Source: a virus
Virus record (IMG/VR): IMGVR_UViG_3300044640_002221
Location: 32,001 to 96,000 of that record
DNA: 64,000 nt
Direction: 5' to 3' (one strand)
Notes under the pieces: generated by a model
Database searches by the model: none
What the model saw: only the letters and a program-made list of their open reading frames with translations
Told to the model about the DNA's origin: nothing
Shown: one piece after another, positions 11,682-35,723 of the stretch
How positions within the stretch are numbered: the stretch's first letter is position 1
How the letters are laid out: every line of letters begins with the position of its first letter
Made by a program: the position numbers and the translations under genes

Positions 11682-11687
11682 GGCATT

Positions 11688-11712
11688 AAAAAGGGGAGTC
11701 TCAGCTCCCCTT
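11688..11712 (-). terminator. Rho-independent terminator
   Basis: On the minus strand AAGGGGAG-CTGAGA-CTCCCCTT followed by a T-run, downstream of the stop of 11735..13078. Confidence 0.65.
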
Positions 11713-11734
11713 AACTTAACTTCACAGATTAGAA

Positions 11735-13078
11735 CTACTCAACTGACTCTAATGTCTTTACTTTTGGTGCGAAGGCACTAAAAAGAGCTGGGTTGGTTTT
11801 TCCAACACTTGAAGAGCTTACAGGTTTAGTAACTACAGGTTCAGTTACAGCTTGCAGAGCAGGCATTCTAGGAGCAGACTCAAAACTAGTCTTACCATTA
11901 GCTACTTCACGCTCTAGCTTTAGAATAGACATAGCATGACGTACCCAGTCTAAAGAAGTCCAGCCTGCTTCAGCCTCAATTACATTTTTATCAGAGACAG
12001 GGTGGAATACTGGGATGTAGTCTTGACCATATTGCTGTTTCTCTAGGTGTCCACAATGCACTTCTGTTACTACTGGATAGCACAACTGACCACCTTGCAG
12101 AACACGGTGGCGTGTACCAGTATAGTTCTGGTCATGCAGGTACTTGAAGTATTCACCTGTAGAATAAATCTCTGAGGGAATGTGAGGGTCTGGTACTACG
12201 TTTCTGTCGAATGTTCCAGTACCAATCCCAGCGTGCTGGGACTTGGATAAACCTTTCAGCTTGAGAATGAATGGACGCTTGAAAGGAACTTTCTGATCTC
12301 CTTCCATTGTGTTAATCTTGGCATCCTCAATGCTTACCCATTTGATAGTAGCTTTTTCAGTATCAATATCATAGTTGTAGATACCTAACTGGAAGACAGC
12401 TATTAAGGCATAACCACCCATACTGCATTTAGCAAACTGAGCATTCTTGTCATTAAACAACTCAGGGTCTCCACCAGTTCCTTCTGGCTTACCATGTAGA
12501 TAATGCTCCCCTGCTTCTACACAAGACTTACAAGTTCGGGGAGTGCTAAAACTTGCGTTAGGATCTGCTCCGATAGGAGGACGACTACCATATAGAACCA
12601 TGTGCTCTTTATCTAACTGAGGGTTAAATACATGAGGATTATTCTTGTTCTGGTACATCCGCTCAAAAGGAAACTTGAGAGGATTGTTGTCGGTGGTATC
12701 TGTACTATTTTTACCTAAATGTTCTACTAAACGAGTAGTACGGCAGATGTTCTTAAAGTTTTTAGGGTCACTATTATCATCAAACGAAGCACCATAATGA
12801 AAGCCTAAGACAATCCCTCTTACAGCACAGAAGTGATGAGAGAAGTGTGATGATACTTCTTTATAAGTTCCAGCACCTTCTTCTCGCTCTTTCTTGGTAG
12901 TAGGTAAAGCCCAATCGAACTTATTAAGAGACTTGATTGAACACTCACGATGAGCTCTCCAAGTGTTGTCAAAGTCTTGACGCTGACCTTCACGCAGGGC
13001 TTGTGGTAATACTTCAGGGTTTTCTTCAAATATTAACTCTTCTGGTTCAAAAGTTGCTAAGTCAGATGTTGTAGTCAT
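11735..13078 (-). CDS. Hypothetical protein (replication-module position; possibly an ssDNA-binding or recombination protein)
   Basis: 447-aa ORF between the helicase and clamp-loader genes; no motif recognised. Confidence 0.55.
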   Translation of the reverse strand: MTTTSDLATFEPEELIFEENPEVLPQALREGQRQDFDNTWRAHRECSIKSLNKFDWALPTTKKEREEGAGTYKEVSSHFSHHFCAVRGIVLGFHYGASFDDNSDPKNFKNICRTTRLVEHLGKNSTDTTDNNPLKFPFERMYQNKNNPHVFNPQLDKEHMVLYGSRPPIGADPNASFSTPRTCKSCVEAGEHYLHGKPEGTGGDPELFNDKNAQFAKCSMGGYALIAVFQLGIYNYDIDTEKATIKWVSIEDAKINTMEGDQKVPFKRPFILKLKGLSKSQHAGIGTGTFDRNVVPDPHIPSEIYSTGEYFKYLHDQNYTGTRHRVLQGGQLCYPVVTEVHCGHLEKQQYGQDYIPVFHPVSDKNVIEAEAGWTSLDWVRHAMSILKLEREVANGKTSFESAPRMPALQAVTEPVVTKPVSSSSVGKTNPALFSAFAPKVKTLESVE

Positions 13079-13158
13079 TTATACTTTTCCTATGATTTCT
13101 CTTTCTCTTTTCTTTTTTCTTTCAACATGAGTAACTTTATTCGTGTTGAATAGCTAGT

Positions 13159-13707
13159 CTAGCTTACTTTCTCGTAAACCACTTGGAAAGTGTTATGAAG
13201 AACTACTCTTGCTACACTAACTGTCATCTCTAGCCCAACGTTAGTGGCACTCTCCCAAGATTTTATCTGGTATATCTTGTATGGTCTACCATTTGAAAAC
13301 TCTTCAGCAGCTTCTTTGAGAACTTTTAAACAGGTGTTGTACTCGTAAAAGATAGCTTCTACCAGACTCTTTATAGGCATTTGAGGAGGCTCTCCTAGAT
13401 TATGCCCTGTAGCTACGCTTATAGAGATTTTGTGGTCGTAGTCTGAGTTAGAACATCCTTCAAAGTTTCTTTCTGTTACGTTTTCTTTGCCAATAAAACC
13501 ATCAGAAACTCTTGAGAGAAAAGCTTTTGACGTTTTTATTAAATTGTAAGAAAGATACTCTTTTTCTGGTTCTACCTTAGTGGAATCACATTTGGAAAAT
13601 TCTGCTACTGGCAGAAGCTCTGGGCTTCTTTCTATCACTTTTTTAAACCAGTTGAGCATATCTTCAACTGTCAAGCTAGACTGTATACTGTATTGAATTT
13701 CTTCCAT
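13159..13707 (-). CDS. Hypothetical protein
   Basis: ORF track. Confidence 0.6.
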   Translation of the reverse strand: MEEIQYSIQSSLTVEDMLNWFKKVIERSPELLPVAEFSKCDSTKVEPEKEYLSYNLIKTSKAFLSRVSDGFIGKENVTERNFEGCSNSDYDHKISISVATGHNLGEPPQMPIKSLVEAIFYEYNTCLKVLKEAAEEFSNGRPYKIYQIKSWESATNVGLEMTVSVARVVLHNTFQVVYEKVS

Positions 13708-13750
13708 TAATCTTTCTTACCATTCTCTTTTCTTTTTTCTTACCTACTTG

Positions 13751-14611
13751 CTACAGTCCTGCCATAGCAAGCCATTTTCGTTTAGCTTTGGGGGAAGGAT
13801 TGAAGTAAAAGTTTACTCCTTCTCCTTTAGGTGCTGTCTTTCTTGTTAGTCCTGGATATCCGCTAACAGCCCAATACTCTGTGGAAAAATAAACCCACTG
13901 TGCAAACCTTTTTAGAAACACACTCTGTCTATTACTAGACCAATGCTTTTCTACTAAATGGCAGAAAGGATTGATAAAAGGTACCAGCCCCTGCGCTTTA
14001 GCTATTTTTAGTAAAATAGGTTCGGATATTCCTGGAGTGACAAACCACTTTCTTAGTTCTCCCTTGGTGAAAGAACCCCACTGTGCCACCCCTTCTATAG
14101 TGGTTAACGAGTCTACAAGCGACTGCTCGTAGCTTAGTGAGTTAGTTCTAGAAAAGCTGTTCTTACCATATTCTAACTCATGCAAAGCTACGTAGGGGTA
14201 GGCGGGGAGGTCTTCTATTCTTCTGAGGTCTAAGATTCTATAACAACCACCTTCTATCTTTTTAGCCGCCCCAGCCAGCTTATCAGAGATCTCTGCTGAG
14301 AGTTCTGTGACAGCTATAAAAGCATAATTGGTTGGGTGAACAAAGAAGAAAGGGTCTGTGGGTAAAAGAAACTCGCTGGTTACTGTTCCTTTAATGCCAC
14401 TACCTTTTAACTCTTTAGGTTGAATAACAAATGCCGCGTCATTAAAAGTTGGGTACTCTAGAGCTTTACGAATCTGGTCTGAAGATGGCTCGTACAAAAG
14501 TTCAGGTTCTAGCCTTAACTTTCTACAAATCCAAGCTATCTGTTCTATAGTACCCAGAGTCAGATAAACACAGCCGGCTCTAAGCTGTGGTAGAACCTCA
14601 GCTAGTAACAT
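13751..14611 (-). CDS. Hypothetical protein, possibly a delta-like clamp-loader subunit
   Basis: 286 aa, overlapping the end of the DnaX-like gene; function inferred from context only. Confidence 0.4.
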   Translation of the reverse strand: MLLAEVLPQLRAGCVYLTLGTIEQIAWICRKLRLEPELLYEPSSDQIRKALEYPTFNDAAFVIQPKELKGSGIKGTVTSEFLLPTDPFFFVHPTNYAFIAVTELSAEISDKLAGAAKKIEGGCYRILDLRRIEDLPAYPYVALHELEYGKNSFSRTNSLSYEQSLVDSLTTIEGVAQWGSFTKGELRKWFVTPGISEPILLKIAKAQGLVPFINPFCHLVEKHWSSNRQSVFLKRFAQWVYFSTEYWAVSGYPGLTRKTAPKGEGVNFYFNPSPKAKRKWLAMAGL

Positions 14612-15719
14612 AGTTTATTACTCCATGATCTTCATCTTGGATGCAAGCTCCTCGTTGAACTAAGTTCTTTCCATACAACTGAGTCACATAAGTAATGAAG
14701 TTAGTTAGTTTAACCTCATATTGTGTGAGAAGGTTTAATGCTACTATTTGGTCTTCGGATAGATTATTAACCATAGCTGCTGAGGTAAGAATGTCATCCT
14801 GCATCTGCTTACAAAGCTGCTCTGGACTTACTCTTTCTAAAAGTTGCTTTGTATAGTGCATTGTATAGAGAAAGTTACTTTTACTCTGTAGCATTTCCCA
14901 TAAAGTCCAGCGCCATTCACCTCTTGCTCTCTGAGCTGTGTATGCTGCTACTTCTGGTGTAACCGTCTCAAACTTTTCTATGCAAGAATCATACAAAGCA
15001 GTAGCCACCCCTATTCTACCTTTAGAGCCTTCTGCTAATATACTTGCAGCTTCTGGGTTCAAGTCTGGGTAGGCTGCTCTCAGAAATACTGCGATAGCTT
15101 CTGGTTCTATTACTCCCAGTCTGATAACACCACTAGCTGACCTTCTTATCAAAGCTGTCCGGTCTTCCTCTGCTAAGTCTTCCTCTTTCATAGTTAGAAA
15201 GATATAACAAACTTGATTACCGGGTACTTCTAGCTCTGTGCGAAGTAAAACTTGCTGCCGAAGGTTTCTAGCGAACTCCTGCCACTCATCAAACACGACG
15301 AACAGTACATCGCGGCTAGGGTCTCCTGTGTTAGTTGCACCTTTAGCAGCAGCATGAAGAGCGTTCTTAACACTTTGGTTAATAGTCTCCTCGGTATAGC
15401 TTCCAGGTTGAACCCAGACTACTCCACTCATAGAGCGGTCTGATAACCTAACATCTATGTCCTTACAGGCTTCACACTCTCCACAAGGTTCATACTCCCC
15501 TTCTACTCTGTTAAGACACCTAAAAGATCGAATCAGAAGTAAGACTAAAGAGGTTTTGCCAACGCCTGACTTCCCTGTAATAAACAAGGAACGAGGTAGA
15601 GCTTTTGCCCCTTTAGTTACTATTCTTTTGAGATAATCAACTTCTGCTTGATTAGTTCCAGAGCCGCAGTAGTAATCTGCCCACCTTTTGGGGGATCTGG
15701 TATAAGGATGATTGTGCAT
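14598..15719 (-). CDS. dnaX: DNA polymerase III gamma/tau (DnaX)-like clamp-loader ATPase
   Basis: FITGKSGVGKTS Walker A, RCLN...EPCGECEAC Zn module, VVFDEWQ Walker B. Confidence 0.85.
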   Translation of the reverse strand: MHNHPYTRSPKRWADYYCGSGTNQAEVDYLKRIVTKGAKALPRSLFITGKSGVGKTSLVLLLIRSFRCLNRVEGEYEPCGECEACKDIDVRLSDRSMSGVVWVQPGSYTEETINQSVKNALHAAAKGATNTGDPSRDVLFVVFDEWQEFARNLRQQVLLRTELEVPGNQVCYIFLTMKEEDLAEEDRTALIRRSASGVIRLGVIEPEAIAVFLRAAYPDLNPEAASILAEGSKGRIGVATALYDSCIEKFETVTPEVAAYTAQRARGEWRWTLWEMLQSKSNFLYTMHYTKQLLERVSPEQLCKQMQDDILTSAAMVNNLSEDQIVALNLLTQYEVKLTNFITYVTQLYGKNLVQRGACIQDEDHGVINYVTS

Positions 15720-24123: not shown

Positions 24124-24274
24124 CACTTGTGTTACGAGTAGCCCGGTTCCGACTACTCTCTCTAGCTTTCACTAGAGGTCAGATCATATCATCCTCAGTT
24201 ATGAGGGAGCCTGTTTCGAGTGTCCGACACCCTACGTCTTGTGACTGACCGTTGAACCTTGTACGTGCTATAAG

Positions 24275-24355
24275 TGGATGCTAAAAGAGTTGAACTTTTC
24301 TTGGGTTTCCCCACGACTTATGAGGTCGTTGCCTAAACCGCTCGGCCAAGCATCC
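24275..24355 (-). tRNA. tRNA(CAU), probably Ile2 (Met not excluded), with a 13-nt variable region; nested in intron 4
   Basis: GGATGCT/AGCATCC+A acceptor; D arm GCCGAGCGGTTTAGGC; ACGAC-CTCATAA-GTCGT anticodon arm; GGGGAAACCC variable hairpin; AAAAG-TTCAACT-CTTTT T arm; no encoded CCA. Confidence 0.88.
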
Positions 24356-24427
24356 ATCTTTATAGTTTAGCACCTTGGCTGCTGATTGTCCATATCCTTG
24401 TTCTTTTTAAACCTGATGACAGCTAGT

Positions 24428-24703
24428 TTAACAAAGGTCTAAGTTACCTTCTGAACTATAATCTACGTCTGTCAGATGGTCTTGACAACATAAGTAAACT
24501 TTTGCGTCTGCTTTTACCAATCCATCTGCTAACAACTTCTGCACCTTATCTAAAAGCTGCTGAACTGTTATTGCTTCTGGGGGTTTAGGAGCATAGTTTT
24601 GAGGTACTAGTAATGCCCCTATGGTCTTTAAACCTGGATGAGGTGCAGCACCACTTTTGGTTATTGTTTTAGGAAGTATGTAAGGTTCTGTCATGTCTTC
24701 CAC
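24428..24703 (-). CDS. Intron-encoded hypothetical protein (no nuclease motif)
   Basis: ORF track; enclosed by the stem ATGATAGTTA/TAGCTGTCAT between the P and Q elements. Confidence 0.6.
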   Translation of the reverse strand: MEDMTEPYILPKTITKSGAAPHPGLKTIGALLVPQNYAPKPPEAITVQQLLDKVQKLLADGLVKADAKVYLCCQDHLTDVDYSSEGNLDLC

Positions 24704-24815
24704 TATTTATTAACTATCATTATAATCACGCTTGCCGTTTCCAGCTACGTTGTGGTGAACAAGGCTCTGAGGAATTTCCAGCAATTTAAGCTCTTTACCC
24801 ACGACCAACTAATCA

Positions 24816-24905
24816 ATCGTGCACCGCGTTTAATATTATAATTCCTGTTCCTTTAGCCTCCTTTCGTACGCGTATCATGGCTTCTTTCATCATCTGGGCG
24901 CATTC
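24816..24905 (-). CDS. polA: Family A DNA polymerase exon (30 codons)
   Basis: ECAQMMKEAMIRVRKEAKGTGIIILNAVHD, matching the IQGxAAD..K.AM to motif C segment. Confidence 0.9.
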
Positions 24906-25000
24906 CGATTATGTTATCACTGAGCTTTTTATCTCAGTTTCTAAAGATTTCTCCTTAGTCCAGGGCACGTCTTGAACAGTAAGTGGGTAGTAGGTTTGGT

Positions 25001-25366
25001 CTAGAAGGGAGAGGCGTAACCTTTCCAGTCTTCTATGGTATTTAAGGTTTGAGTCTCAGTGGTCAGTCCAGCTATTAAAGTAGAGACACCTCCTTGTAAG
25101 TTTGGTAGTTTTATTCCTTTAGAAGGATTAGCTCTTTCAAACTCTGCATAAGCTTTATCAGAGTAAAACTGCCCCGTGCTTTGCTGGAGTTGGTCTCTCA
25201 GCTTAGTGTTCTCTTCCATAGCAACAATCAACTTTTCAGTCAATTGTTGGTTCTGTGTTTGCAGGTCAGCTACTAAAGCTTGATAGCTACTGGTGAGAAC
25301 TATCTTGGTGTCAAGTATCTTCTCTAAGTCAGAAGACTCGACGAACTGTTCGTTGTGGTTGTTCAT
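25001..25366 (-). CDS. Intron-encoded hypothetical coiled-coil protein
   Basis: ORF track 25001..25411; likely start is ATG 25366, just after the upstream stop. Confidence 0.6.
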   Translation of the reverse strand: MNNHNEQFVESSDLEKILDTKIVLTSSYQALVADLQTQNQQLTEKLIVAMEENTKLRDQLQQSTGQFYSDKAYAEFERANPSKGIKLPNLQGGVSTLIAGLTTETQTLNTIEDWKGYASPF

Positions 25367-25370
25367 TTGT

Positions 25371-25979
25371 TTAGATAACGTAAGGTTGAACAATTGCGCG
25401 GTACTCTTCAAGTCTGGCTTCTAAGGTTTGGCACTTAGTTTCAAGTTGATTAATCTGCTCTACATACTTAGGAACTAAGTCTTCAAGCTCTGCCAATCTA
25501 GCTCTCAAGTGTATGAGTTCTGACTTTGAGCTTTCCTTCTTCTCTGTAGCCTTTTCAGACTGTTCATTAAAGTAGTCTTCTGCAGTACCTTCCCATAAAG
25601 GGTTAGCCTCAAGCTTATCAACTGCCCAGCGAAGAATCTTATCACTGATAATTACTTTGAAGCAGCTCTCTTCTTTTAGAAGACCAATCTTTTCCACAAC
25701 GTCCCAATGCTCATAGAGGAAGATACAGCGGTAAGCTTTTCTTCTTTCTACTCTCTCTTCTAAATAATGATTAAAAGAGTTGAAAGTTCCTCTGTCAGTT
25801 TCTACAGGGTTAGACTTAGTAGCTGATGCCAGCATATCTCTAATCTTTGTGAGAGACTCTCCAGCATCTCGGTAATGTTGAAGGCTCTTTCTCCTTAACT
25901 GTTGAGACTCTTTAAAGTTCTCGTCAGCTTCACCAAACTTAGTCATGTAATTTGTTTCTAATAGAGATAGGATAAGCAT
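25371..25979 (-). CDS. Intron-encoded protein, DUF3102-like N-terminus plus coiled coil
   Basis: YRDAGESLTKIRDML...F.HYLEE.V..RKAYRCI.LYEHW resembles the N-terminus of 43906..45258. Confidence 0.55.
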   Translation of the reverse strand: MLILSLLETNYMTKFGEADENFKESQQLRRKSLQHYRDAGESLTKIRDMLASATKSNPVETDRGTFNSFNHYLEERVERRKAYRCIFLYEHWDVVEKIGLLKEESCFKVIISDKILRWAVDKLEANPLWEGTAEDYFNEQSEKATEKKESSKSELIHLRARLAELEDLVPKYVEQINQLETKCQTLEARLEEYRAIVQPYVI

Positions 25980-26320
25980 AGAACTTTTATTCTGCTAAAG
26001 GACATGACCTGTGGTTTAAACCACAGGTTCTCATTACTAATATAGCAGCTTATTCTAGAAGAAACATCTTGAGTCTTATTAAACCTTCCAACTACCTTAA
26101 TACGACCTTTGCTGCCTACTTACTGTCCGGGGGCGCTCTTGGGTCTCTTACCGTCTGTTCCTGCAATGCAAGACTGAAGACTTAGACCTGCCCGTCGCAC
26201 CTTCCTACCATTTCTGATAGGCTTGGCTCAAAGTTATCCTCAACATCACTTGGTAGGACTTTCTTATGAGTTCACCCCCTGCACTCTAAAAGTCACCTAA
26301 TAGAGGGGCAATTGTTATTT

Positions 26321-27204
26321 CAGTGTTATTACCGTCAAGGCTCTTTATCCCTGACTTCTACTGGTCACCCAGCAGCTTGGACTATTTCATTATCTAGACT
26401 TAGTAGTAGAACTCTCTTTCTATTTAAGAAGAAACCAGGTTCTTGGTACATAAGCTTGGTCAGCCGTTCAACGCGTTCCTTACTGCCGACTCTTATCACT
26501 TGCACACTCCTATTGTTGTAGATGCTAACCTTAAAGTCATTCTCTCTAAGAAAACTAACTAATTGGTCAACAAACTCTTTACTAGCAGAGCATAAAGTTA
26601 TAGCTTTGTAATCCCCTTTTGCCCCATCCTTTTTGATGTGACCATTCCCATCCATGACACCTCTAAAGAAGCTAAAACTTAAAGGAAAGTTAACCTTTAA
26701 AGATTTACTCTTTCTAGGGGTTATTCCAAGGCTAGTTAAATAAGAAGCAACTTCTTTATTAGTGAAGCTTACCTCGTAATAAGTAGTTTGGTATCTCTTG
26801 TCGAAGATAGGGTAGGGTTTCATCAATTCCCCTAAAAAGCTGCAGAAAGCTAAGGCTAAGTCTTCATCTTTTGTAACTAGACTAACCTTTCCTCTATCAT
26901 GCACGCAGCCATCTGTTGCCATTATTCCCAGCCAGTATTGAACTTCTGGGGCAAGCATTTCTGTAAATGGATTAGTTGTTACTTTCTTAGGGAGTCTTGG
27001 CATCTTTTTCTCTACTACATTCTCAGTCTAGATATCGGGCGCTCGTGGGCAGATTATTATTGGGATTCACTGCCTAGTCTCTGAACCTTCTAGGAAACCT
27101 ATGCCCTTCCTAGCTTGGCTTAGCGTTATCTTACCTTGTAAGACTTTCACTAAATTCACCCGATTTTCATTTATTGATTACTCAATAAAGGGGCTCTCTA
27201 CGGG
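26321..27204 (-). mobile_element. Group I intron 3a of polA (884 nt) with a LAGLIDADG gene in P8
   Basis: IGS GCCCC; P GAAUUUAGUGAAA; R UUCAGAGACUA; P3' CGCCCGAU; P8 AUCUAGACU/AGUCUAGAU; S GAAAUAGUC; ends AUAACACUG. Confidence 0.88.
26365..27003 (-). CDS. LAGLIDADG homing endonuclease (double motif)
   Basis: YWLGIMATDGCV and FFRGVMDGNGHI. Confidence 0.9.
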   Translation of the reverse strand: MPRLPKKVTTNPFTEMLAPEVQYWLGIMATDGCVHDRGKVSLVTKDEDLALAFCSFLGELMKPYPIFDKRYQTTYYEVSFTNKEVASYLTSLGITPRKSKSLKVNFPLSFSFFRGVMDGNGHIKKDGAKGDYKAITLCSASKEFVDQLVSFLRENDFKVSIYNNRSVQVIRVGSKERVERLTKLMYQEPGFFLNRKRVLLLSLDNEIVQAAG

Positions 27205-27274
27205 ACCCTGGATCGCGTGGTTCACTGCAGCGCGAACCGAGCTTTCTCCTACGCCCTTAGCATTCTCTTCATCT
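27205..27274 (-). CDS. polA: Family A DNA polymerase exon (70 nt)
   Basis: (V)DEENAKGVGESSVRAAVNHAIQG, the R.A.N..IQG motif. Confidence 0.9.
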
Positions 27275-27441
27275 CTATTGTGTTATCGCCAGGGCTCTTT
27301 ATCCTTGGCTTCTGTAGGTTATTTTTCCACTACAGTACAGACTATATCATCAACTTAAAAGCAAGCAATTAGTTAAACGTACGGTGTTTTAGTCACGTAG
27401 ACTATTTTGAGTTATTCTTTCTCTTTTCTTTTTTATTACTC

Positions 27442-27573
27442 CTACTGCTTAAACACTACTTCTCTGACGCTGCTGTCCTCTCTTTGTAAGAAAAGTTTAG
27501 ACCCTGCTATTCTTTCCTTTAAGAAGTAAGCTCCTGTAACTATAGCTTTTGTACTTACTTCTTCTGTGGTCAT
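27442..27573 (-). CDS. Small hypothetical protein (43 aa), intron 2 cargo
   Basis: Hand translation MTTEEVSTKAIVTGAYFLKERIAGSKLFLQREDSSVREVVFKQ. Confidence 0.4.
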   Translation of the reverse strand: MTTEEVSTKAIVTGAYFLKERIAGSKLFLQREDSSVREVVFKQ

Positions 27574-27639
27574 ATCTTGGCTTCTAAAATGTTTGTAATG
27601 GAAACACTCTGTTTGCTAAGTAGCTTGTCCTCTAGTTGG

Positions 27640-28512
27640 TCAATCTTTGGTATGTTCACTTTGTTGTGCTTGCCAGACAGTAATACCAACTTCATCTTCT
27701 ATAGCTACTAACTCAGCCGTTATGTTAAAGCTCGAAAAATCAAAAACGCTGACTAAATCTACAGATTTAATATGTACCGCTTTTAAAGACAAAGCAGAAA
27801 CTACACGATAGAATAACTCTTCTTGATTACTTACAGAGTTCTTGATTAAGTAAGTTAACTTGTAAAGTTGAGGAGTGGGAGCGGTGTTTTTAACGCTACA
27901 AACTACATTACCCTCTTCATCTTCTACTCTTGTTAAAGACCAAATAGAGTCTTCGGTACTGAACTCTCCCGCAATATCAAAGCCTTTTTGTTTAGCTAAG
28001 TTTTCAGACTCAGTGCTGAATATCTTATAAAACTCACTGACAGAAGCTTTGTTGTTTACAGAGAATACCAGTTTGTAATCTTGAGAATGCTCTTCTTCTA
28101 AGCACTCACCAACTTCACAGTCCCAAACTATCAGGTTGTCTGAGTCATAAATACGTTTTAAAGTTACTAACCTCTCAGAACCTTGAAGTGCATCTATTGT
28201 AATCTCTGCTGCTACTAAAGCTTCTTGCAGGTCTTTAACTATAACTTCTCTTTCTAAGTTAAAGCTTCTTGGTACAATTTGCTTATTAACGTAAAACTCT
28301 AGCCTGAAAGTTTTCAGGTAAGAATATCTACAATGAAGTCTATAAAGAACTGCGCCAGCTCTAGTTTGACCATCTTTAAGAGTCTCTCTAGCTGCATCTA
28401 AGTAACCCTGAAGTACCTCTCTTTCAATGCCTGGATAGCTTTGGATTAGAAACTCTAGGGTCGGGAGTTCTTTTAAAGTATCGGCAATCAAACAATTGTA
28501 TAGTTGTTGCAT
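27640..28512 (-). CDS. Hypothetical protein with internal YKL repeats, intron 2 cargo
   Basis: ORF track; repeated YKL...FY(K/R)...(V/L)EDE.G..V units. Confidence 0.65.
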   Translation of the reverse strand: MQQLYNCLIADTLKELPTLEFLIQSYPGIEREVLQGYLDAARETLKDGQTRAGAVLYRLHCRYSYLKTFRLEFYVNKQIVPRSFNLEREVIVKDLQEALVAAEITIDALQGSERLVTLKRIYDSDNLIVWDCEVGECLEEEHSQDYKLVFSVNNKASVSEFYKIFSTESENLAKQKGFDIAGEFSTEDSIWSLTRVEDEEGNVVCSVKNTAPTPQLYKLTYLIKNSVSNQEELFYRVVSALSLKAVHIKSVDLVSVFDFSSFNITAELVAIEDEVGITVWQAQQSEHTKD

Positions 28513-28741
28513 GGTTATTTCTTTTAGTCTTGGTAATAATCTGATTGAAATTGTTCTTCTACGAGGTTATCAAGCTGTTCTGTAGCTATATGAGCAAAGC
28601 ATACATGGAGGCTGCTCATATAGTCGGAAGCTTCATTACCTATTACTAAAGCATTCTCTAAGTTACTAGCCAACACATCTCTATAGATTAAAAAGTCTGG
28701 CAAAACCTCTGTACTGACGGTTTAACGTCAGTTTGTATCTA

Positions 28742-28891
28742 TTACTGCTTTTCTTTCTCCTCAATGTCATCAGCTTCCTCCCTGTAAGAGTTCAGTTGTG
28801 CAACTATTTGTTCTGCTGTTTCTCCTTCTGGGAGGGTTACAGCTCCGCTGAGAACATAGTCTTGCAGCATTGTAATAATATCTTGGCTCAT
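28742..28891 (-). CDS. Small hypothetical protein (49 aa), intron 2 cargo
   Basis: Hand translation MSQDIITMLQDYVLSGAVTLPEGETAEQIV...; paralog of 29500..29706. Confidence 0.6.
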   Translation of the reverse strand: MSQDIITMLQDYVLSGAVTLPEGETAEQIVAQLNSYREEADDIEEKEKQ

Positions 28892-29319
28892 GGTAGCTTA
28901 GTCTTGTTGTTCTGTTTATACCAATCTGGGTTGTACATTTCTACTTTCTGATCAATCTCTAGCTTTAGACAAGCCTCTAAATTTACTTCAACCACATTAA
29001 GAGTGCGGACTGCTACACTAGATAACCGTTGAACCTGTAAGTTTGGTTCATCCTCCTCTGTTAAAGTCTTTAAAACTTCTAGAGCACTCATCGTGGTTGG
29101 TAGAGTAATGATAAACGGATTGAGCCCTAGCCAATGAAGAGCTGCACTTGTTGACCAAGTAGCATCTAGCTCATGAGAACTTTTATAGCCAGTCTCAAAA
29201 GCAGCTTTAGCTTTTTCTGCTGAACGAAAAGTGCATAGAGACTTATCTTCAGTAAGAGACAAAAAAGCTTTTCCTTGAGTTCTAAAGATTATGAAGTAGT
29301 TATTCACTGCGTTTACCAA
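28888..29319 (-). CDS. Hypothetical protein, intron 2 cargo
   Basis: ORF track. Confidence 0.6.
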   Translation of the reverse strand: MVNAVNNYFIIFRTQGKAFLSLTEDKSLCTFRSAEKAKAAFETGYKSSHELDATWSTSAALHWLGLNPFIITLPTTMSALEVLKTLTEEDEPNLQVQRLSSVAVRTLNVVEVNLEACLKLEIDQKVEMYNPDWYKQNNKTKLP

Positions 29320-29500
29320 ACCCTTTGGCTGACCTTAAATCTGCCTTAGTTCTTATTTTAGGCGTAGGCTGACAGGGGGAGGAGTCATCAATAAAGGATT
29401 TAATTTCTGCTCTATCAACTTGACTTATCCCATAGCTGTTAATTAGTCCTCTGTCATCAGACCAGACAGGACTAGCGACAAATATTTCTGCTTCACGCAT
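29300..29500 (-). CDS. Hypothetical protein, intron 2 cargo
   Basis: ORF track; ends AKGFGK like its neighbour (ARGFGK). Confidence 0.55.
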   Translation of the reverse strand: MREAEIFVASPVWSDDRGLINSYGISQVDRAEIKSFIDDSSPCQPTPKIRTKADLRSAKGFGKRSE

Positions 29501-29706
29501 TACTTAACTCCTTTAGGCTTACCAAATCCTCTAGCTGCTGGCAGTGGTGGATTGAGATAACCAAACTCCCCCTGGTCTAAGACAAAGGTTTCAAAGAAAA
29601 CTAAGTCTTTCTGCATCTTCTCGACGTTAGACCCTTCTGGTGGGGTTATAGCCCCACTCTGAATGAGCTTTATCAACTGAATGGAAGTCTTTTCACGTTT
29701 AGTCAT
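29500..29706 (-). CDS. Hypothetical protein, intron 2 cargo
   Basis: ORF track; SGAITPPEG motif. Confidence 0.6.
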   Translation of the reverse strand: MTKREKTSIQLIKLIQSGAITPPEGSNVEKMQKDLVFFETFVLDQGEFGYLNPPLPAARGFGKPKGVK

Positions 29707-30208
29707 CTTGATTTACCTTTGGTAGTCTTCTACCTATTTCATAGTTCTCAAACATCCACTTAACTACGTGGTCTACTAGATAGTGTTTTAACTGCCAGTA
29801 ACTTGACCTGCCCATCTGTTCTTCAGCTACCTGCATACAAGCCTTTAACTTTTCAGACCCTTCAGGTTCATGGTTAGAAGTTTTAGTAAGAGCTTGGCTT
29901 ATCTTATCAAGAATCTCCTCTACATTATCTGCTGGTCTTGTTTGATAAACAGTTACTCCACCAGACAGATTACCTACTGGTGGAGTGGCTAAGTTTTCTA
30001 CTGGTGGAGTGGCTAAGTTTTTAGGAATCCTGTAAACCTGAAAGTAACAGTCGGGCGCGGCAAGTAGCATCCTAGTGAGAGTTACATTCTTGTAGTCTGG
30101 AAAGTCTTTAACTAATTCTTCCATTTGGGTATACAGCTTCAGCAGCTCTCTAGGTAGCATATAGAGAGTCTTAGCATACTGTACATAATCAAAGTCTTGT
30201 TCTGTCAT
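29699..30208 (-). CDS. Hypothetical protein, intron 2 cargo
   Basis: ORF track; 24-nt tandem duplication (NLATPPVE/NLATPPVG). Confidence 0.6.
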   Translation of the reverse strand: MTEQDFDYVQYAKTLYMLPRELLKLYTQMEELVKDFPDYKNVTLTRMLLAAPDCYFQVYRIPKNLATPPVENLATPPVGNLSGGVTVYQTRPADNVEEILDKISQALTKTSNHEPEGSEKLKACMQVAEEQMGRSSYWQLKHYLVDHVVKWMFENYEIGRRLPKVNQDD

Positions 30209-30213
30209 AATGT

Positions 30214-30546
30214 TTAAGAGTTTTGTTCTTTATTCTTGAAAAAGGTCAGCCAATCTATTACTACATCTAATAGAGCGTCTTTTGCTTCTGGAGATAGTCT
30301 TGCTACCATTTCCACCAAATCTCTCTGAGCATCTTCAGCAAACAACTTGGGCTGATAGACTCTTCTAAACTCCTTTCTAATCTCTCTAAGCTTTGGCAGG
30401 TGCGCTTTTAGTAAAGGGTTAACCTCCCAAGCTGCTATTATGCTTTCAATAATGTCTGAAGCTTCTTTTACTACAGGACTAAGACTAGTCTCTATAGCTT
30501 GCTCAATAAGCTGGGTAGCTTCTTCTACATACTCTTGTTCTGTCAT
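30214..30546 (-). CDS. Hypothetical protein, intron 2 cargo
   Basis: ORF track. Confidence 0.6.
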   Translation of the reverse strand: MTEQEYVEEATQLIEQAIETSLSPVVKEASDIIESIIAAWEVNPLLKAHLPKLREIRKEFRRVYQPKLFAEDAQRDLVEMVARLSPEAKDALLDVVIDWLTFFKNKEQNS

Positions 30547-30888
30547 TTAATTCTCCGATGCAGATGGTTTGTACATCCAATTATCTCCTCCATGCGGCGG
30601 AGGAACGTCTATAAACCCTAATCTTTCATACCAAGCTTTAAGGTCAGTCTTTCCTAAGCCTTGATTAAACGGAACAGACTGCAAACAAAAGGTTGCTTTA
30701 GGATGAGCATCAAAGACCTCTTGCAAAAGCTGCGTGCCGTAACCTTGTCTCTGAAACTCAAGGTTGATGAACAAGTTTATTATCTGAACTTGTTTACCCT
30801 CTTTGACTGTGAATGTGCCGCCTATTATCTCACCTGTGTCTGACAGAAGCTCATAATAGGCAGCTTTTAACTTGTTTATTTTTACCAT
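30547..30888 (-). CDS. GNAT-family acetyltransferase, intron 2 cargo
   Basis: LFINLEFQRQGYGTQLL (acetyl-CoA motif A) and LKAWYERLGF (motif B). Confidence 0.85.
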   Translation of the reverse strand: MVKINKLKAAYYELLSDTGEIIGGTFTVKEGKQVQIINLFINLEFQRQGYGTQLLQEVFDAHPKATFCLQSVPFNQGLGKTDLKAWYERLGFIDVPPPHGGDNWMYKPSASEN

Positions 30889-30920
30889 TGCTTGCTTTTA
30901 AGTTGCTGGGCGCTCGTGTG

Positions 30921-31544
30921 CTACAAGTAATTCATGTCTATTTTATAAGACATAGATGGAATGATAAATGGCTCAACAAGGGCTATAAATTTCTTTGCTT
31001 CCTTTGTTCCACAAGTTAATCTGTACCAACCTTTGTTTAGAACCTGACCAAAGTTAATAGCGTACTTTTCTTTAAAGAAATCTATGATAATTTGGTTTTC
31101 TTCTTTGGTTCTATGAGTGTTCAGATATATTCTTCTAGCGTGAATCTTTCCATTTCTTTTAGGTAAAGAAAGATTTCCATCGTCCATATACCAAATAGCT
31201 ATTCCTTCTGGCGTTAGGTAGTTTAAAATCTTTCTTTGATAGGTTTTTATCCCATTTGGGTACATCCACTTTCTTAAATAACGAAACCATCTATGCTGTT
31301 TTGAAATTTGCACACCTGGATACCCATTATTATTTATCTCCTGGATTTTTGGTTGTTTGCCCCCGAGAATTGAGTGTAGTAACTTAGCTTTGTGCTCCAG
31401 GTACTCTCTTTGCTTTGCTGAGTGTCGCAACTTCAAAGTATAGTACGTTTTAGGAACAGTACATCTTTTGTTAACTACAGGCGTTACGTACCCGTCCCCT
31501 AAGACCATTGCTATTAGCAGAGATTTTTTTAACTGTCTTTCCAT
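30921..31544 (-). CDS. LAGLIDADG homing endonuclease (LAGLIDADG_2-like)
   Basis: LIAMVLGDGYV, HSAKQREYL..K, LTPEGIAIWYMDDG. Confidence 0.9.
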   Translation of the reverse strand: MERQLKKSLLIAMVLGDGYVTPVVNKRCTVPKTYYTLKLRHSAKQREYLEHKAKLLHSILGGKQPKIQEINNNGYPGVQISKQHRWFRYLRKWMYPNGIKTYQRKILNYLTPEGIAIWYMDDGNLSLPKRNGKIHARRIYLNTHRTKEENQIIIDFFKEKYAINFGQVLNKGWYRLTCGTKEAKKFIALVEPFIIPSMSYKIDMNYL

Positions 31545-31723
31545 CTTCTTTTACAAACCTTTTGGTTGTACTTTATGTAAATTGTAGCTTAGTCGTTACA
31601 CTTTCCTACCATCCCTGATAGGCTTAGCTAGGTATTACCCTTCCTTGCTGCAAAGGTTTGGGGCTTTCACCTAATTCACCCAGTTGTCATCCACCAATCA
31701 CTTGGTGGCGGGGCTGAGAACCA

Positions 31724-32154
31724 ACCCATCTCCATAATCCTGATACTGGAGAGATAGCATATCCTCTGGCGGCTGCGATCGCTCCGAACTCTTCTGCCCA
31801 AGCGTAATAACCTGGATAGGTAGTTCTGTGTCCTGTTAACCAAGACTGAGCTACTTCTTCTTTTACACAGAAGTTTTCAGCAGCTGTTGAAGCGGACATA
31901 AGATATATGCTACCAAAGTTGAGAGATTTTGCACTCTTCCTTGCTCCGCTTTTGTCTGCTATTGCTCTCCATTCGTGCTCTGGTTTTCCTTCAAATAAAT
32001 GAGGGGCTACACAACCTTTTGATGAGAGAGTATGTAAATCGGAGTAGGGATTTACATACTCTGTACCATCTTCTAAGTAGAGCTTAGTTTTTGCTAGATA
32101 ACTGTTGACCATTGTGGGGTCTTTCGACCATGCTGCGGCTGTGATTAGCTCTTG
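31724..32154 (-). CDS. polA: Family A DNA polymerase exon containing motif B
   Basis: QELITAAAWSKDPTM...DLHT...RKSAKSLNFGSIY...SGLWRW(V); 431 nt, and phase matches both neighbouring exons. Confidence 0.92.
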
Positions 32155-32308
32155 CTTTTGTGATTACCGTGAGGCTCTTTATCCTCACCTCTTATAGTTT
32201 CCTATAAGCTTCGACTATCTCTTCATCTCATGTTGTATTAATACCCTAGACGGGGCTCGAACCCGCAGTTCCTTTCGTAAGCATAAGGGTTAGGAGAAAA
32301 GGTTATAA

Positions 32309-33418
32309 CTACCTGAGCCATTTTCTTATAGCGTTGTCACTTACACCAAACATTTTACCCACAGAAACATAACTTTTTGAAGAAACTAGAGCTAATAGTT
32401 CTTCTTTACTAGGTCTGTCTTTGACTTTTCTAGTATGTAATTGATGACAAGAGGGACAGCGAGCACTCTTTCTACTCAATGTGATTTTGCCGCAGTCTTT
32501 ACACTTGTTATCTTGAACTTCTTTGTTTCTGAGTTTTTCCTGTTTTAGCTTCAGTAAGTCTGCCTTTTCTTGTCTTTTAATGGTCAGTTGTTTCTGCTTT
32601 TCTTCTGTAGCCTTATTACGAAGATGTCTCTCTGCCTGCTTAACTCTTAGTGTGTCTAACTTTACTGTTTCTAGTGTTATTAGCTGCATTGCCAGACTGA
32701 ACTTTCTTTCTAGCTTGCTTGTAGAGTCTGCATATAATACTTGACAAACTTTTAAAGCTCGCAGCCCATTAACATTGACCTCGCAGTAGTTACCTCTATT
32801 AACAGGTCTACACCTATAAGCTGGGTCTATAGACTTTACATATTCTATAAACCCTTCCACCATATTTATAGACCCACATAGACCAACTGCTCTTTTCTTT
32901 TCTCCTACATAAACCCATCCATCTCCATCTATACAGCCCCGCCAAAAGTGACGCTGTAAAGAGGGTTCTATGTAAGGTGGTGATGCTATTAGAGATTTAC
33001 GAGGTACTACCCCAAGCTTTGCCAAGTCTTCTTTCATTCTTTTTGAGAATACTGATAGACAAGCAGAGTTTTTCTTCGTGTATCTAACTTTTGTGTGGGC
33101 TTCTAAATAATCTTTAAACTCTTCCAGTATAAGAAAATCATTTTTATGTACTTCTAAGGAAATATTATTTCCTTTTGTAGATACACACCCATCAGTTATT
33201 AAAAACCCAAGGAAATAGGCTTTACTTTCAGTATCAATGTTTTCAAAGAATGACTCGTTCACAGGTTTAAGCGTGCCTCTTCCGTTTTTGGCTACTAGGG
33301 CAAGATTAATATAACATAAGATGCCTGGCGTTCGTGGAGCTTTCTGCTGTTCCAGCTTATTAACTCTAGTCTGTACACCTTCCTTCCATTCCTGGAAGGC
33401 TTGGCTCGGTGTTGTCAT
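32309..33418 (-). CDS. LAGLIDADG homing endonuclease with a C-terminal Zn ribbon and HTH
   Basis: YFLGFLITDGCV, FWRGCIDGDGWV, CKDCG...CPSC, SYVSVGKMFGVSDNAIRKW; the N-terminus overlaps the intron core. Confidence 0.88.
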   Translation of the reverse strand: MTTPSQAFQEWKEGVQTRVNKLEQQKAPRTPGILCYINLALVAKNGRGTLKPVNESFFENIDTESKAYFLGFLITDGCVSTKGNNISLEVHKNDFLILEEFKDYLEAHTKVRYTKKNSACLSVFSKRMKEDLAKLGVVPRKSLIASPPYIEPSLQRHFWRGCIDGDGWVYVGEKKRAVGLCGSINMVEGFIEYVKSIDPAYRCRPVNRGNYCEVNVNGLRALKVCQVLYADSTSKLERKFSLAMQLITLETVKLDTLRVKQAERHLRNKATEEKQKQLTIKRQEKADLLKLKQEKLRNKEVQDNKCKDCGKITLSRKSARCPSCHQLHTRKVKDRPSKEELLALVSSKSYVSVGKMFGVSDNAIRKWLR

Positions 33419-33514
33419 GCTCTAGTAGAGTTTAGAGTTCACCGAGTTAACCAGGTTTACACTACATGATTACTCGTGTAGGAGGCCAATGGTAGATGCA
33501 ACCCTGTCTTTGCC

Positions 33515-33856
33515 TTAAAGACGGTTATGCTTTTCGGTTCTTTGTACTCTTCTTGGTACTTTATTCTCATCGAGAATGTTATATAAGACAGTAGTGCCAA
33601 AACCAAACTCTTTTAGGATGTCGCCAGCTTTTGAACCAGCTTTATATTTTGATATAACCTGCTCAACAGTGGCAGAAGGCAGCTTGACTTTACTAGCGAT
33701 AGTCCTTCTTTCATAAACTTGGTTTTTATCCAATAGAGTATAAAAATTATGACTGTTAAGCTCGTATCTCAGTTTTATTCTGTGTACAGGCTCGCCATCT
33801 TTATATGCTGCTATTATTTCTGCTACTTGTTGTGGGGTTAAATCTTTATAGCTCAT
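33515..33856 (-). CDS. Intron-encoded tandem-HTH DNA-binding protein
   Basis: Two similar HTH-like units (QVAEIIAAYKDGEPVHRIKLRYEL / QVISKYKAGSKAGDILKEFGFG); no nuclease motif. Confidence 0.65.
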   Translation of the reverse strand: MSYKDLTPQQVAEIIAAYKDGEPVHRIKLRYELNSHNFYTLLDKNQVYERRTIASKVKLPSATVEQVISKYKAGSKAGDILKEFGFGTTVLYNILDENKVPRRVQRTEKHNRL

Positions 33857-33877
33857 TGCACCTACCGGATATTTTCA

Positions 33878-33991
33878 ACCTGCGTAATCACAGCTTATAT
33901 GCACTTCTCCTGGTCTACATTCAAACCCTACTCTGGGATTACCTGGGAAGGTAATTGTTCTTGTTTCAGGTTGCCATAGAGTAATTCCCAA
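33878..33991 (-). CDS. polA: Family A DNA polymerase exon containing motif A
   Basis: ...TITFPGNPRVGFECRPGEVHISCDYAG; same frame as 34154..35554 but separated from it by 4 stops; the 5' limit (TTG 33991, preceded by AAAGGA) is uncertain. Confidence 0.75.
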
Positions 33992-34188
33992 ATTTCTTTT
34001 CCTTTCTTAGTTAGTTGCAGATACTGCCTCTTGATGAGCAGCTGCTTACTTTTTAAAACATTCAAAGCAAGCATCACCTCCTTGGTGGTTAGTGGAACAT
34101 CTGGAAATAGAATACCCTTTTGAGGGTCTTTAAAGCACTGGAGAACTAGCAACTCATGCTGGCTCAACTTTAAGCCCAACGGGAGCAA
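33928..34188 (-). CDS. Winged-helix-like reading frame bridging two polA segments
   Basis: LSQHELLVLQ...LNVLKSKQLLI..YLQLTKKGKEIWELL; +1 frame relative to polA. Confidence 0.45.
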   Translation of the reverse strand: MLPLGLKLSQHELLVLQCFKDPQKGILFPDVPLTTKEVMLALNVLKSKQLLIKRQYLQLTKKGKEIWELLYGNLKQEQLPSQVIPE

Positions 34189-35554
34189 ACCAGGCTTTAG
34201 ATAGTGTAAGATTGCAATGCGTTTTATTCCCTATTTGTTGGCTGTTAGGTGCTGAAGAACTGGCTCTACTTGTAGCGGCTCCAAGTTGATCATAGCGAGG
34301 ATGAACGTTACCAGTCACAGGATTAATAAACTTTCTCAAGTCCATACCTTCCTGCTTCAATAACTTCTTAAACTCAAGAATAGCTTTCACTACAGGGCTG
34401 AGAGCTATCAAGTCTGACTGTTCCATGATAGTTAGTTCCTCAAAGAGAGATTCCTCATCATCACTAATAAAGATATCATCTCCACCAGCCTCACCATCGC
34501 CCCCGCTGTCTGTCTTTTTAGAAGCATGAAGTAAGTCTACAATGTCTAGCATTCTTTTGAGAGTTTTACCTTGTACATCAGTTAGCTTATTCATGTTGAT
34601 AGCTTTCTGAAGTACATCTAGTAAGCCTGTTGAGGAGCGAAGAACCTTGAGGGCTTTCTGCGAAGGAACTTCTTTACCAGACCAATCACGTTGGGGAGTG
34701 TCAAGCTCTAGTTCTCTCGAAAGATAAACTCCAGCTTCGTCTAGTGCTTCACAAACCCCTTCTTGATAAAGTCGCATGGTTTCTTCACTGACTGGCATAC
34801 CGCCATATTCCATCTCAGCTACTATGACAGTGAAGTTTAATTCTCGTTTAAGAACTTTCTCCATTCCAAAGCCATAAACACCTGAGCTGTTACCTGTCTG
34901 TAAGATAGGGCTATCTGGTAGTGCGGCTATAATAACTTGCTCCATGATGTCATGTATCTGAAATAGATATTTAACATCTGTAGCTGCGTATAGCACCTTC
35001 TCATACCACCATTCATTATCTAGAGTTCTGGCTGATATTGCAGTTCCCCAGGTAGAAGCACGCAGGTCTTTCTTACCGGTGATGTGAACACTCAAATACT
35101 CTCGGCACAAGTCAGCGTAACTATGTCCATGACCTTTACCTACCTTTGAGCCTGTGGCATTGGATATTAACTTACCCATTACCATGATGTCTCGCACGCG
35201 CTCTGGCATATAGTCCAAGGTTGATTTCATGAACTGCATATCAAACTTGTAGTTAATACCTAGCTGATAGTCTTGTACACTTTCTAAAGTGTCTATCAGT
35301 TCTTGAGGGTTGTAACCAGCAACTTCTAGGTGAAGTAAATCAAAGACGTAGGGGATACCTTTAGGCTTCTGGGCTATTAGCAGAGAGATTCTACCTGTGT
35401 GAGGGTCAAGAGCAGAGCCACCTTTGGTTAACCACTCTGGTCTTACACAGGTTTCTGTATCTACTGCCAGCCGCTTTGCTCCATAAAGGTCTCTACAAGC
35501 TAGAGGATAGTCTTGCAGGTTGGTTATGTAGGCAAAAGGTTTAGTTTGTTTCAC
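34154..35554 (-). CDS. polA: Family A DNA polymerase, N-terminal 3'-5' exonuclease and thumb region
   Basis: ExoI AVDTE, ExoII NYKFD, ExoIII YAATD, and HPRYDQLGAATSRASSSAPNSQQI (TGRLSS.PNLQNI equivalent). Confidence 0.92.
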   Translation of the reverse strand: MKQTKPFAYITNLQDYPLACRDLYGAKRLAVDTETCVRPEWLTKGGSALDPHTGRISLLIAQKPKGIPYVFDLLHLEVAGYNPQELIDTLESVQDYQLGINYKFDMQFMKSTLDYMPERVRDIMVMGKLISNATGSKVGKGHGHSYADLCREYLSVHITGKKDLRASTWGTAISARTLDNEWWYEKVLYAATDVKYLFQIHDIMEQVIIAALPDSPILQTGNSSGVYGFGMEKVLKRELNFTVIVAEMEYGGMPVSEETMRLYQEGVCEALDEAGVYLSRELELDTPQRDWSGKEVPSQKALKVLRSSTGLLDVLQKAINMNKLTDVQGKTLKRMLDIVDLLHASKKTDSGGDGEAGGDDIFISDDEESLFEELTIMEQSDLIALSPVVKAILEFKKLLKQEGMDLRKFINPVTGNVHPRYDQLGAATSRASSSAPNSQQIGNKTHCNLTLSKAWFAPVGLKVEPA

Positions 35555-35723
35555 TAGCCGCTAGTTCCTCATAGTCAGCTAACTCTCTAGCAGCTTTTTC
35601 TTTTATAGCTTTAGCTTGGACTAAAGTAGCTTGCGCCCTCTCAAATTCTTTCTTAGCTTGAGTTAAGTTTCTAGTTATGCGAGTTAGATAGGCTTGCTCT
35701 TGGTCTTTCTTGTCTAAGCTCAT
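35541..35723 (-). CDS. Hypothetical coiled-coil protein
   Basis: ORF track. Confidence 0.55.
   Translation of the reverse strand: MSLDKKDQEQAYLTRITRNLTQAKKEFERAQATLVQAKAIKEKAARELADYEELAASETN

Follow-up and report, generated by a model that had tools for sequence, protein, structure and literature searches.

Can a phage group I intron house a whole set of genes inside its ribozyme and still be removed from an essential gene? This question is raised by the family-A DNA polymerase gene polA on a 64,000-nt stretch of virus DNA, hereafter the window (bases 32001-96000 of the 136.9-kb IMG/VR record IMGVR_UViG_3300044640_002221, estimated to be 71% complete). Here, a putative group I intron of 4,449 nt (27275-31723) separates two PolA exons, and the two halves of its ribozyme are themselves separated by several kilobases of open reading frames (ORFs). 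To our knowledge, phage group I introns are generally seen as compact ribozymes with at most a homing endonuclease. We consider it probable that the element is a genuine, cis-spliced group I intron, which holds an endonuclease gene in a P7.1-type hairpin and co-transcribed cargo genes in the loop of helix P8 (L8), with P8 serving as a clamp. Positions are given in window numbering throughout, and the intron features are read on the minus strand, which carries nearly all genes of the window phage.

The core elements of a group I ribozyme are all present at this locus, in the right order and abutting one another. They were compared at the nucleotide level in two genomes, the window phage and a relative, L005, a 196.9-kb IMG/VR contig (94% complete) whose exon A is 73% identical to that of the window. 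The 5' exon, PolA exon B (QELITAAAW ... motif B ... LWRW-V), occupies 31724-32154 and the 5' splice site follows U31724. The intron begins with UGGUUCUCAGCCCC, which pairs with the end of exon B (...GLWRW-GU) to make P1 (31711-31727; GGGU|UG at 31727-22 with CAGCCC at 31716-11); in this helix, identical in L005, U31724 stands opposite G31714 and provides the U.G wobble at the 5' splice site. P2 is the hairpin CCACCAA-GUGA-UUGGUGG (31691-31708), with a U.G in L005 where the window has C-G, and directly after it an in-frame UGA (31689-31687) stops read-through from exon B. The segment 31590-31683 supplies the 5' strand of P3 (CUGGGUG, 31683-77), P4-P6 and the 5' strand of P7 (CGACUA, 31595-90), as indicated by the Rfam alignment, the fold and compensatory pairs in P5, P5a and P6 relative to L005. 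A single hairpin separates the 5' strand of P7 from the 3' strand of P3, of 7 bp in the window (GCUACAA/UUGUAGC, 31588-31582/30926-30920, closing 30920-31588) and short in L005, which would be in keeping with an IA-like intron. The P3 3' strand (CGCCCAG, 30906-30912) pairs with 31683-31677.

On the far side of the cargo, J8/7 and the P7 3' strand (AUGAUAUAGUCUG, 27350-27338) match the Rfam consensus gAAGAUAUAGUC, against which J8/7 itself reads AUGAUAUAGUC, and P7 pairs as (C)GACUA/UAGUC(U)G. P9 (27335-30/27317-12) and a P9.1-like hairpin with GGAUAAAGAGCC complete this 3' part of the intron (27275-27350), which is 75-78% identical to its L005 counterpart and ends with G27275. The 3' exon, PolA exon C ((V)DEENAKGVGESSVRAAVNHAIQG), lies at 27205-27274. 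Ligation is predicted to give ...W-V|D-E-E-N..., where GU and A form a valine codon followed by DEENAKG and the frame is restored; the spliced junction would read ...GAUGGGU|AGAUGAAGAG..., given also as ...GGAGAUGGGU|AGAUGAAGAGAAUG.... A previous, sequence-only reading of the window had proposed a single 4.4-kb group I intron spliced across 31724/27274, with the LAGLIDADG gene housed apart from the cargo. The ordered core and the colinear exons bear out the first of these proposals; the splice sites proved self-consistent, U31724 pairing with G in P1 and G27275 being the terminal G; and the endonuclease gene is indeed separate, its 7-bp stem folding between P7 and P3'.

That reading had itself named the alternative of two separate introns with a missed exon between them, and such an exon was looked for against gp178 of Microcystis phage Ma-LMM01 and not found. 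Exon B aligns over 32154-31771 with gp178 residues 28-165, exon C over 27279-27208 with residues 179-204 (54% identity) and exon E over 24959-24816 with residues 194-240. The gp178 segment '...GRFINV NEDNAKGIAG...' aligns with the joined exons '...LWRWV DEENAKGVGE...' with zero residues unaccounted for. Since no gap separates exons B and C in the alignment with gp178, no exon is hidden in the cargo, and both a hidden exon and a pair of introns were ruled out.

The exons also indicate that the polymerase is in use. Catalytic motifs A, B and C of PolA are intact across them. Between the window and L005, 29 of the C-terminal 66 codons of exon B are changed, 20 of them synonymously (86% identity at the protein level); 13 of the 21 codons compared in exon C differ (9 synonymous, 4 amino-acid-changing), as do 15 codons in exon E (9 synonymous). 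Codon change is thus mostly synonymous in both lineages, and therefore the polymerase is in use and the intron must be removed; its splicing appears to be required by the logic of the polA gene. Since polA is extraordinarily broken, with five introns and an upstream split, the intron could be thought to have decayed, leaving polA without a spliced product, either as a relic or with the polymerase supplied otherwise. We consider this highly improbable: purifying selection acts on both flanking exons, the catalytic motifs are intact, the ribozyme helices are held by compensatory change and the arrangement persists in several lineages and dozens of contigs.

The two halves of the ribozyme meet at P8. 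Its 5' arm (CAACUUAAAAGCAAGCAAU, 30887-30905) directly adjoins P3', which ends at 30906, and its 3' arm (AUUGCUUGCUUUUAAGUUG, 27351-27369) directly adjoins J8/7-P7', which starts at 27350. The exact complementarity of 30905-30887 and 27369-27351, pointed out previously, was verified: the arms form 19 pairs across 3,517 nt, with a duplex energy of -25.7 kcal/mol. They are the only long-range perfect inverted repeats of at least 19 nt in the 11 kb from 24500 to 35600. The chance expectation is about 0.013 such pairs per 64 kb and the longest found in 100 shuffles was 17 nt, which rules out a chance inverted repeat. The Rfam consensus P8 has 9 pairs, so that P8 is two to three times as long in the window (19) and in L005 (20). 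All 39 pairs of the two phages are Watson-Crick, with zero G.U pairs and zero mismatches.

Folding and covariation are consistent with this anatomy. When cargo and endonuclease were replaced in silico by GAAA, the minimum free energy (MFE) folds of the resulting mini-introns of both phages contained P1 (with U.G at the splice site), P2, P3, P4/5, P6, the hairpin, P8, P9 and P9.1. The MFE fold of the full 4,486-nt window RNA kept 19/19 P8 pairs across 3.5 kb, P3 across the 655-nt endonuclease insert and the 7-bp hairpin, and that of the 1,815-nt L005 RNA kept 20/20 P8 pairs across 1.5 kb. In the window/L005 alignment, 13 pairs are changed on both sides and still paired, including 8 in P8 and 3 in P5/P5a/P6; the remaining two belong to a spurious exon pairing and to the non-homologous hairpin. 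Broken pairs are limited to that hairpin, to P9 (alignment gaps) and to the spurious exon pairing.

What does the P8 loop contain? The L8 cargo (27370-30886, 3,517 nt) comprises 11 co-oriented ORFs of 41-290 amino acids, two of them doubtful, mostly spaced by overlaps or by gaps of 0-5 nt, with one gap of 229 nt. The first encodes a 113-amino-acid GNAT acetyltransferase (30547-30888; PF13508 at 36.5 bits against a cut-off of 27, also PF13673 and PF00583). It is followed by ORFs at 30214-30546, 29699-30208, 29500-29706, 29300-29500, 28888-29319 and 28742-28891, by a doubtful one at 28524-28703, by a 290-amino-acid ORF at 27640-28512, by a second doubtful one at 27570-27695 and by the last, at 27442-27573. 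The sequence-only reading had listed a GNAT gene, six hypotheticals and 2-3 small ORFs in about 3.5 kb; the GNAT assignment, the co-orientation and the size stand, while the count is raised to 11 including the two doubtful ORFs. Its remark that the GNAT start codon overlaps the end of the stem also holds, the AUG (30888-30886) sharing 2 nt with the end of that arm, the 5' one of P8. Homologues of the 290-amino-acid ORF are present in public assemblies (93% and 54% identity), so that this ORF is a real gene; its AlphaFold model has a mean pLDDT of 37.8. Apart from GNAT, no family was found with Pfam and PHROGs in the cargo ORFs scanned, and tblastn against isolate phages gave zero matches. The LAGLIDADG homing endonuclease of the P7.1-type hairpin is a 207-amino-acid ORF (30921-31544) that matches PF03161 (LAGLIDADG_2; E 1.2e-29) over profile positions 3-168 of 168, as well as PHROG 11023.

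Comparison with L005 shows that the layout is conserved and its content is not. As the sequence-only reading had suggested, the relative was compared for the presence of a cassette at the P8 loop, and it keeps the layout, with a stem of another sequence and 1.48 kb of cargo that is largely not that of the window. Its intron lies at the identical codon (...IRW-GU|U...), and its ribozyme is 75-80% identical to that of the window in both halves. The L005 P8 is a perfect 20-bp helix (CAACUUCUUAAUUAACAACC/GGUUGUUAAUUAAGAAGUUG) closing a loop of 1,480 nt, in which the basal 6 bp alone are shared with the window, the inner 13-14 bp being wholly different. The L005 intron has no endonuclease. Among its approximately six cargo ORFs, just two small families have counterparts in the window, the first at 38% identity (E 2.5e-8) and the second, with a PEGETAE motif, spotted by eye in the translations. 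The 290- and 169-amino-acid cargo ORFs of the window were not found anywhere in the 94%-complete L005 record.

This pattern brings up the possibility that the inverted repeats act mainly at the DNA level, as the ends of a mobile cassette, the borders of an invertible segment or template-switch repeats, and that the lengthening of P8 is incidental. It fits the 39/39 Watson-Crick stem pairs in two phages and the fact that the inner 13-14 bp and the neighbouring genes both differ, as if replaced together. However, neither a transposase nor a recombinase nor an integrase was found with Pfam/PHROGs in the ten intron ORFs scanned (all but the smallest two, of 41 and 43 amino acids), and the arm sequence is unique in the 137-kb genome; a transposon-like cassette was rejected on these grounds. 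Moreover, the arms start and end exactly at P3' and J8/7, their basal 6 bp are the conserved P8, and protein-recognised ends would keep their sequence rather than switch to another complementary pair. We regard a mainly DNA-level role as quite improbable, although such a process would explain the origin of the stem and is compatible both with an RNA role and with the cis-spliced intron that we favour. Indeed, joint remodelling of the stem and the cargo ends in the DNA itself is suggested by the absence of G.U pairs, taken with the wholesale swap of inner stem and adjacent genes.

Other relatives are represented by protein sequences only. Exon-B ORFs of three more protein clusters, encoded on over 60 contigs (the longest 211 kb), also continue past this 5' splice site into the shared intron start (...RWV-xLQPxxQVIGG). 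For one lineage, a homologue of the 290-amino-acid ORF is encoded on contigs equal in size (35,048 nt; 6,328 nt) to those of the exon-B ORF, and the two genes probably share them; if so, the 6,328-nt contig places the cargo gene at most 6.3 kb from exon B. Another protein, P0004, is an exon-B ORF 95% identical to that of the window which, after ...WRWV, continues into a different read-through tail, DSLRLLIGLPGVEPGRIWGFI; this points to a very close relative in which the site holds another variant of the intron. Scans of viral contigs with patterns specific to the intron or to polA returned the L005 contig or nothing, and scans of metagenome contigs and genome contigs for relatives gave no match.

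Several points weigh against a single cis-spliced intron. The support at the DNA level comes from one relative, L005. For kilobase RNAs, MFE folding takes account of neither co-transcriptional folding nor ribosomes moving through the cargo, and is indicative only. RF00028 (Intron_gpI) matches the 5' core alone (31587-31677, 26.4 bits, E 0.001), so that the intron as a whole stays under the Rfam gathering score of 50 bits; the score is low and confined to the 5' half because the model cannot bridge inserts of 655 nt and 3.5 kb, and the L005 orthologue gives partial matches of 37 and 31 bits. Purely Watson-Crick stems are unlike the usual slow drift at the RNA level and hint at recent remodelling or at a DNA-level process. 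Finally, a polypurine 'gene-start' motif lies before the P8 3' arm, and the 3' half may also be made as a separate transcript. This copy (AAAAAAGAAAAGAGAAAGA, 27416-27434) stands after the last cargo ORF, 46 nt before the 3' arm, with no ORF after it, and the version of the L005 lineage, AAAAAAGAACAAAGAA, is found 1 nt before its own P8 3' arm, again with no gene after it. In the whole genome, the motif (TAAG)AAAAAAGAAAAGAG(A/C/T)AAG(G/A) has 34 copies on the gene strand versus 3 on the other (window examples at 36802, 27434, 21989, 16022, 13738, 13118 and 5047). The copies are mostly intergenic, 0-45 nt before an ATG and often directly after a hairpin and a T run; the motif probably serves the window phage as a promoter or leader. 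Were it a promoter, a separate 3' transcript would start shortly ahead of the arm. As for the 46-nt spacer itself, a relic second J8/7 within it (27407-27390) was considered and dropped, since the match covers 8-10 nt only and is not significant by local alignment.

The motif opens the possibility of a bipartite intron, made as two RNAs split inside L8, one with exon B, the 5' ribozyme half and the cargo, the other with the 3' arm, the 3' ribozyme half and exon C onward, which would be trans-spliced via P8. The split could come from initiation at the polypurine motif, from termination or from RNase cleavage. Besides the position of this strand-specific motif in both phages, such a scheme would suit a P8 of two to three times the consensus length and perfect Watson-Crick pairing, which favours bimolecular association; furthermore, the break of natural trans-spliced group I introns usually falls in L8 (PMC3873408). 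On the other hand, the halves are colinear, on one strand and 3.5 kb apart, so that read-through yields a cis precursor anyway. A promoter/terminator consensus scan gave no excess over shuffles and no convincing terminator in the cargo, and the motif could be a promoter, a 5' leader or something else. The other cargo-bearing polA intron (26320-24906), described below, lacks it. Splicing from two pieces seems unlikely to us, and the cis-spliced intron remains the preferred explanation.

In this cis-spliced intron, two peripheral loops would have been taken as insertion sites, the P7.1-type hairpin by the LAGLIDADG gene and the P8 loop by 3.5 kb with about 11 genes. Since the hexacoral ND5-717 intron carries 2-16 genes in P8 and L8 is the usual break of trans-spliced introns, P8 could be expected to tolerate such cargo. 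The lengthened P8 (about -26 kcal/mol) would act as a long-range clamp that regroups P1-P7/P3' with J8/7-P7'-P9 as soon as transcription has passed the 3' arm. The intron would then leave by the two-step, guanosine-initiated reaction, joining ...LWRW-V to DEENAKG... and restoring the palm of the polymerase. The cargo would be transcribed within the polA transcript and translated from the precursor, from the excised intron or from both. The further idea of the sequence-only reading, that the excised intron could be a stable mRNA for the accessory genes, is purely speculative. Because the GNAT start codon lies in the stem, translation of this first cargo gene and formation of P8 should be mutually exclusive. 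Cargo would turn over fast between lineages, while ribozyme and exons are conserved. As the endonuclease of the window phage is intact, homing could carry the entire intron with its cargo into intron-less polA alleles.

How uncommon is this arrangement? In a sample of 51 IMG/VR phage introns with the 3' motif of this intron, we determined how far J8/7 lies from the 5' strand of P7. The distance was 50-130 nt in 29 introns and 318-870 nt, with one ORF, in 20; the two others reached 1,791 nt (two HNH ORFs) and 1,563 nt (L005). In the window intron, it amounts to 4,240 nt. Classical phage introns (T4 td, nrdB and sunY; the DNA polymerase introns of SPO1, Bastille and Pf-WMP3) resemble the window intron in their IA-type core (tentatively IA-like in the window) within a DNA-metabolism gene, in an early in-frame stop, in an endonuclease ORF looped from a peripheral helix and in a conserved polymerase site (PMC3984707, PMC3428280). 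They contain at most one endonuclease ORF and measure about 0.2-1.5 kb, whereas the window intron adds about 11 non-endonuclease genes.

A full-text literature search found no phage intron with a multi-gene, non-endonuclease cargo, so the sequence-only claim that an operon inside a phage ribozyme loop is undescribed stands for phages. It does not stand for group I introns overall, as the hexacoral mitochondrial ND5-717 intron already holds 2-16 genes in P8 and is still spliced (PMC6545197). In sea anemones, zoantharians and mushroom corals, this intron holds anything from 2 genes (anemones) to 16 (mushroom corals, where it reaches 18-19 kb), and it shares with the window intron the presence of whole genes in P8, an essential host gene and a same-strand arrangement (PMC6545197). 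It is, however, organellar, obligatory and vertically inherited, and its cargo consists of the host's own essential genes, whereas the window intron resides in a phage; its cargo, a GNAT gene and orphan accessory genes, varies between close relatives, another loop holds a homing endonuclease, and P8 is a perfect 19-20-bp helix. A group I P8 insertion on a comparable scale appears so far to have been described in cnidarian mitochondria only.

Two other systems are relevant. In the bipartite mitochondrial introns of Trichoplax, Helicosporidium, Gigaspora and Prasinoderma, the break is in L8, the loop that holds ORFs in their cis relatives, and the pieces rejoin via P8 and tertiary contacts (PMC3873408); their halves are far apart or on opposite strands, in contrast to the colinear halves of the window intron. 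The IStron CdISt1 of Clostridioides difficile is a bacterial group I intron (IA2) that contains non-endonuclease genes and still splices (PMC3984707). Its cargo is an IS605-type element with two transposases located at the intron 3' end, whereas in the window the cargo is in L8 and no transposase was found.

If an intron with lineage-variable cargo holds, ribozyme loops would be insertion-tolerant and possibly mobile sites for genes, and thus a new route of gene flux in phages. A bacterial-type system would then tolerate kilobase interruptions of P8 despite coupled transcription and translation. The locus could also serve as a natural model of a long-range helix that rescues ribozyme folding and of cis introns drifting toward trans-splicing, and for annotation it would imply that genes interrupted in this manner are miscalled as many fragments. 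A broader idea, which we put forward tentatively and consider rather doubtful, is that such introns are vehicles or safe harbours for fast-changing cargo, with P8 enabling assembly from two RNAs and the stem switching between cargo translation and splicing. If this were true, homing would spread the L8 operon between co-infecting phages from inside an essential gene, and the window would provide the first example, from anywhere but an organelle, of natural trans-splicing by a group I intron.

As for the phage itself, the window also encodes recA, an SNF2 helicase, thyA and a baseplate protein. In tblastn searches against isolate phages, the N-terminal part of PolA matched cyanophages only, namely the Ma-LMM01 group (27% identity) and the Pseudanabaena phages Pam2 and PA-SR01; the isolate-phage collection had no near match and, for PolA, distant relatives only. 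The phage is a large freshwater cyanophage of roughly 190 kb, distantly related to Ma-LMM01.

The rest of the polA locus, also on the minus strand, is interrupted several more times. PolA is already broken upstream (33890-34230; 12320-12662 in L005): ...SSAPNSQQIG is followed by about 270 nt with in-frame stops and a conserved winged-helix-like ORF of 86/93 amino acids in the +1 frame, and then by a micro-exon, FPGNPRVGFECRPGEVHISCDYAG, which carries the motif-A aspartate and is in frame with exon A. No group I signal was found in these approximately 270 nt. An equivalent upstream break exists in Ma-LMM01 (gp180/gp179/gp178). After the micro-exon comes a group I intron (32155-33889) with its 5' splice site, GGU|U, at about 33889. 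It contains a 113-amino-acid ORF with helix-turn-helix-like repeats (33515-33856), apparently in L1, and a 369-amino-acid LAGLIDADG ORF (32309-33418) that starts within the ribozyme core. Its L005 counterpart, a compact intron that scores 81.8 bits with Rfam (13026-13263), has no LAGLIDADG gene.

Downstream of exon C, two introns (27204-26321 and 26320-24906) lie back to back with zero exon bases between them. The former bears an endonuclease, scores 63.7 bits with Rfam and ends at G26321; it must splice first, because only then does the latter have its 5' exon. L005 lacks it, so that exon C runs directly into the second intron (CAAGGU|AAAUUACAUUUGCCCC). This second intron (24906-26320; 16898-18322 in L005) has another cargo-bearing P8, with ORFs of 202 (25371-25979) and 136 amino acids (25001-25411) that show no endonuclease motif. 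Its P8 is a long imperfect helix (GGACAGUAAGU.../...ACUUACUGUUC) with G.U pairs and one compensated change relative to L005, and its cargo is conserved, at 71% identity to L005. The 202-amino-acid ORF has a 36%-identical paralogue at G000:C1:119660-120184. Just before this ORF, a perfect 22-nt palindrome (ACCTGTGGTTTAAACCACAGGT, 26007-26028), with a 9-bp stem and a T-rich tail, has the appearance of a terminator.

The fifth polA intron (24124-24815) follows ...NAVHD| and contains a tRNA-Met (CAT; 24274-24355) and a 91-amino-acid ORF (24428-24703); the last polA exon, ELNARAPGK...IGPIWLH, starts at about 24123. With a second cargo-bearing P8 intron and a tRNA-holding intron in the same gene, the cargo intron is therefore not a one-off. 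In L005, polA additionally contains two apparent inteins that are absent from the window phage, one at about 11320-12290 (CIAAGMKV...VHN|SSS, before the motif PNSQQ) and one at about 13560-14850 (AK|CVTGDTKV...VAQD|SLNFG, inside motif B), so that this gene has been invaded by inteins as well as by introns.

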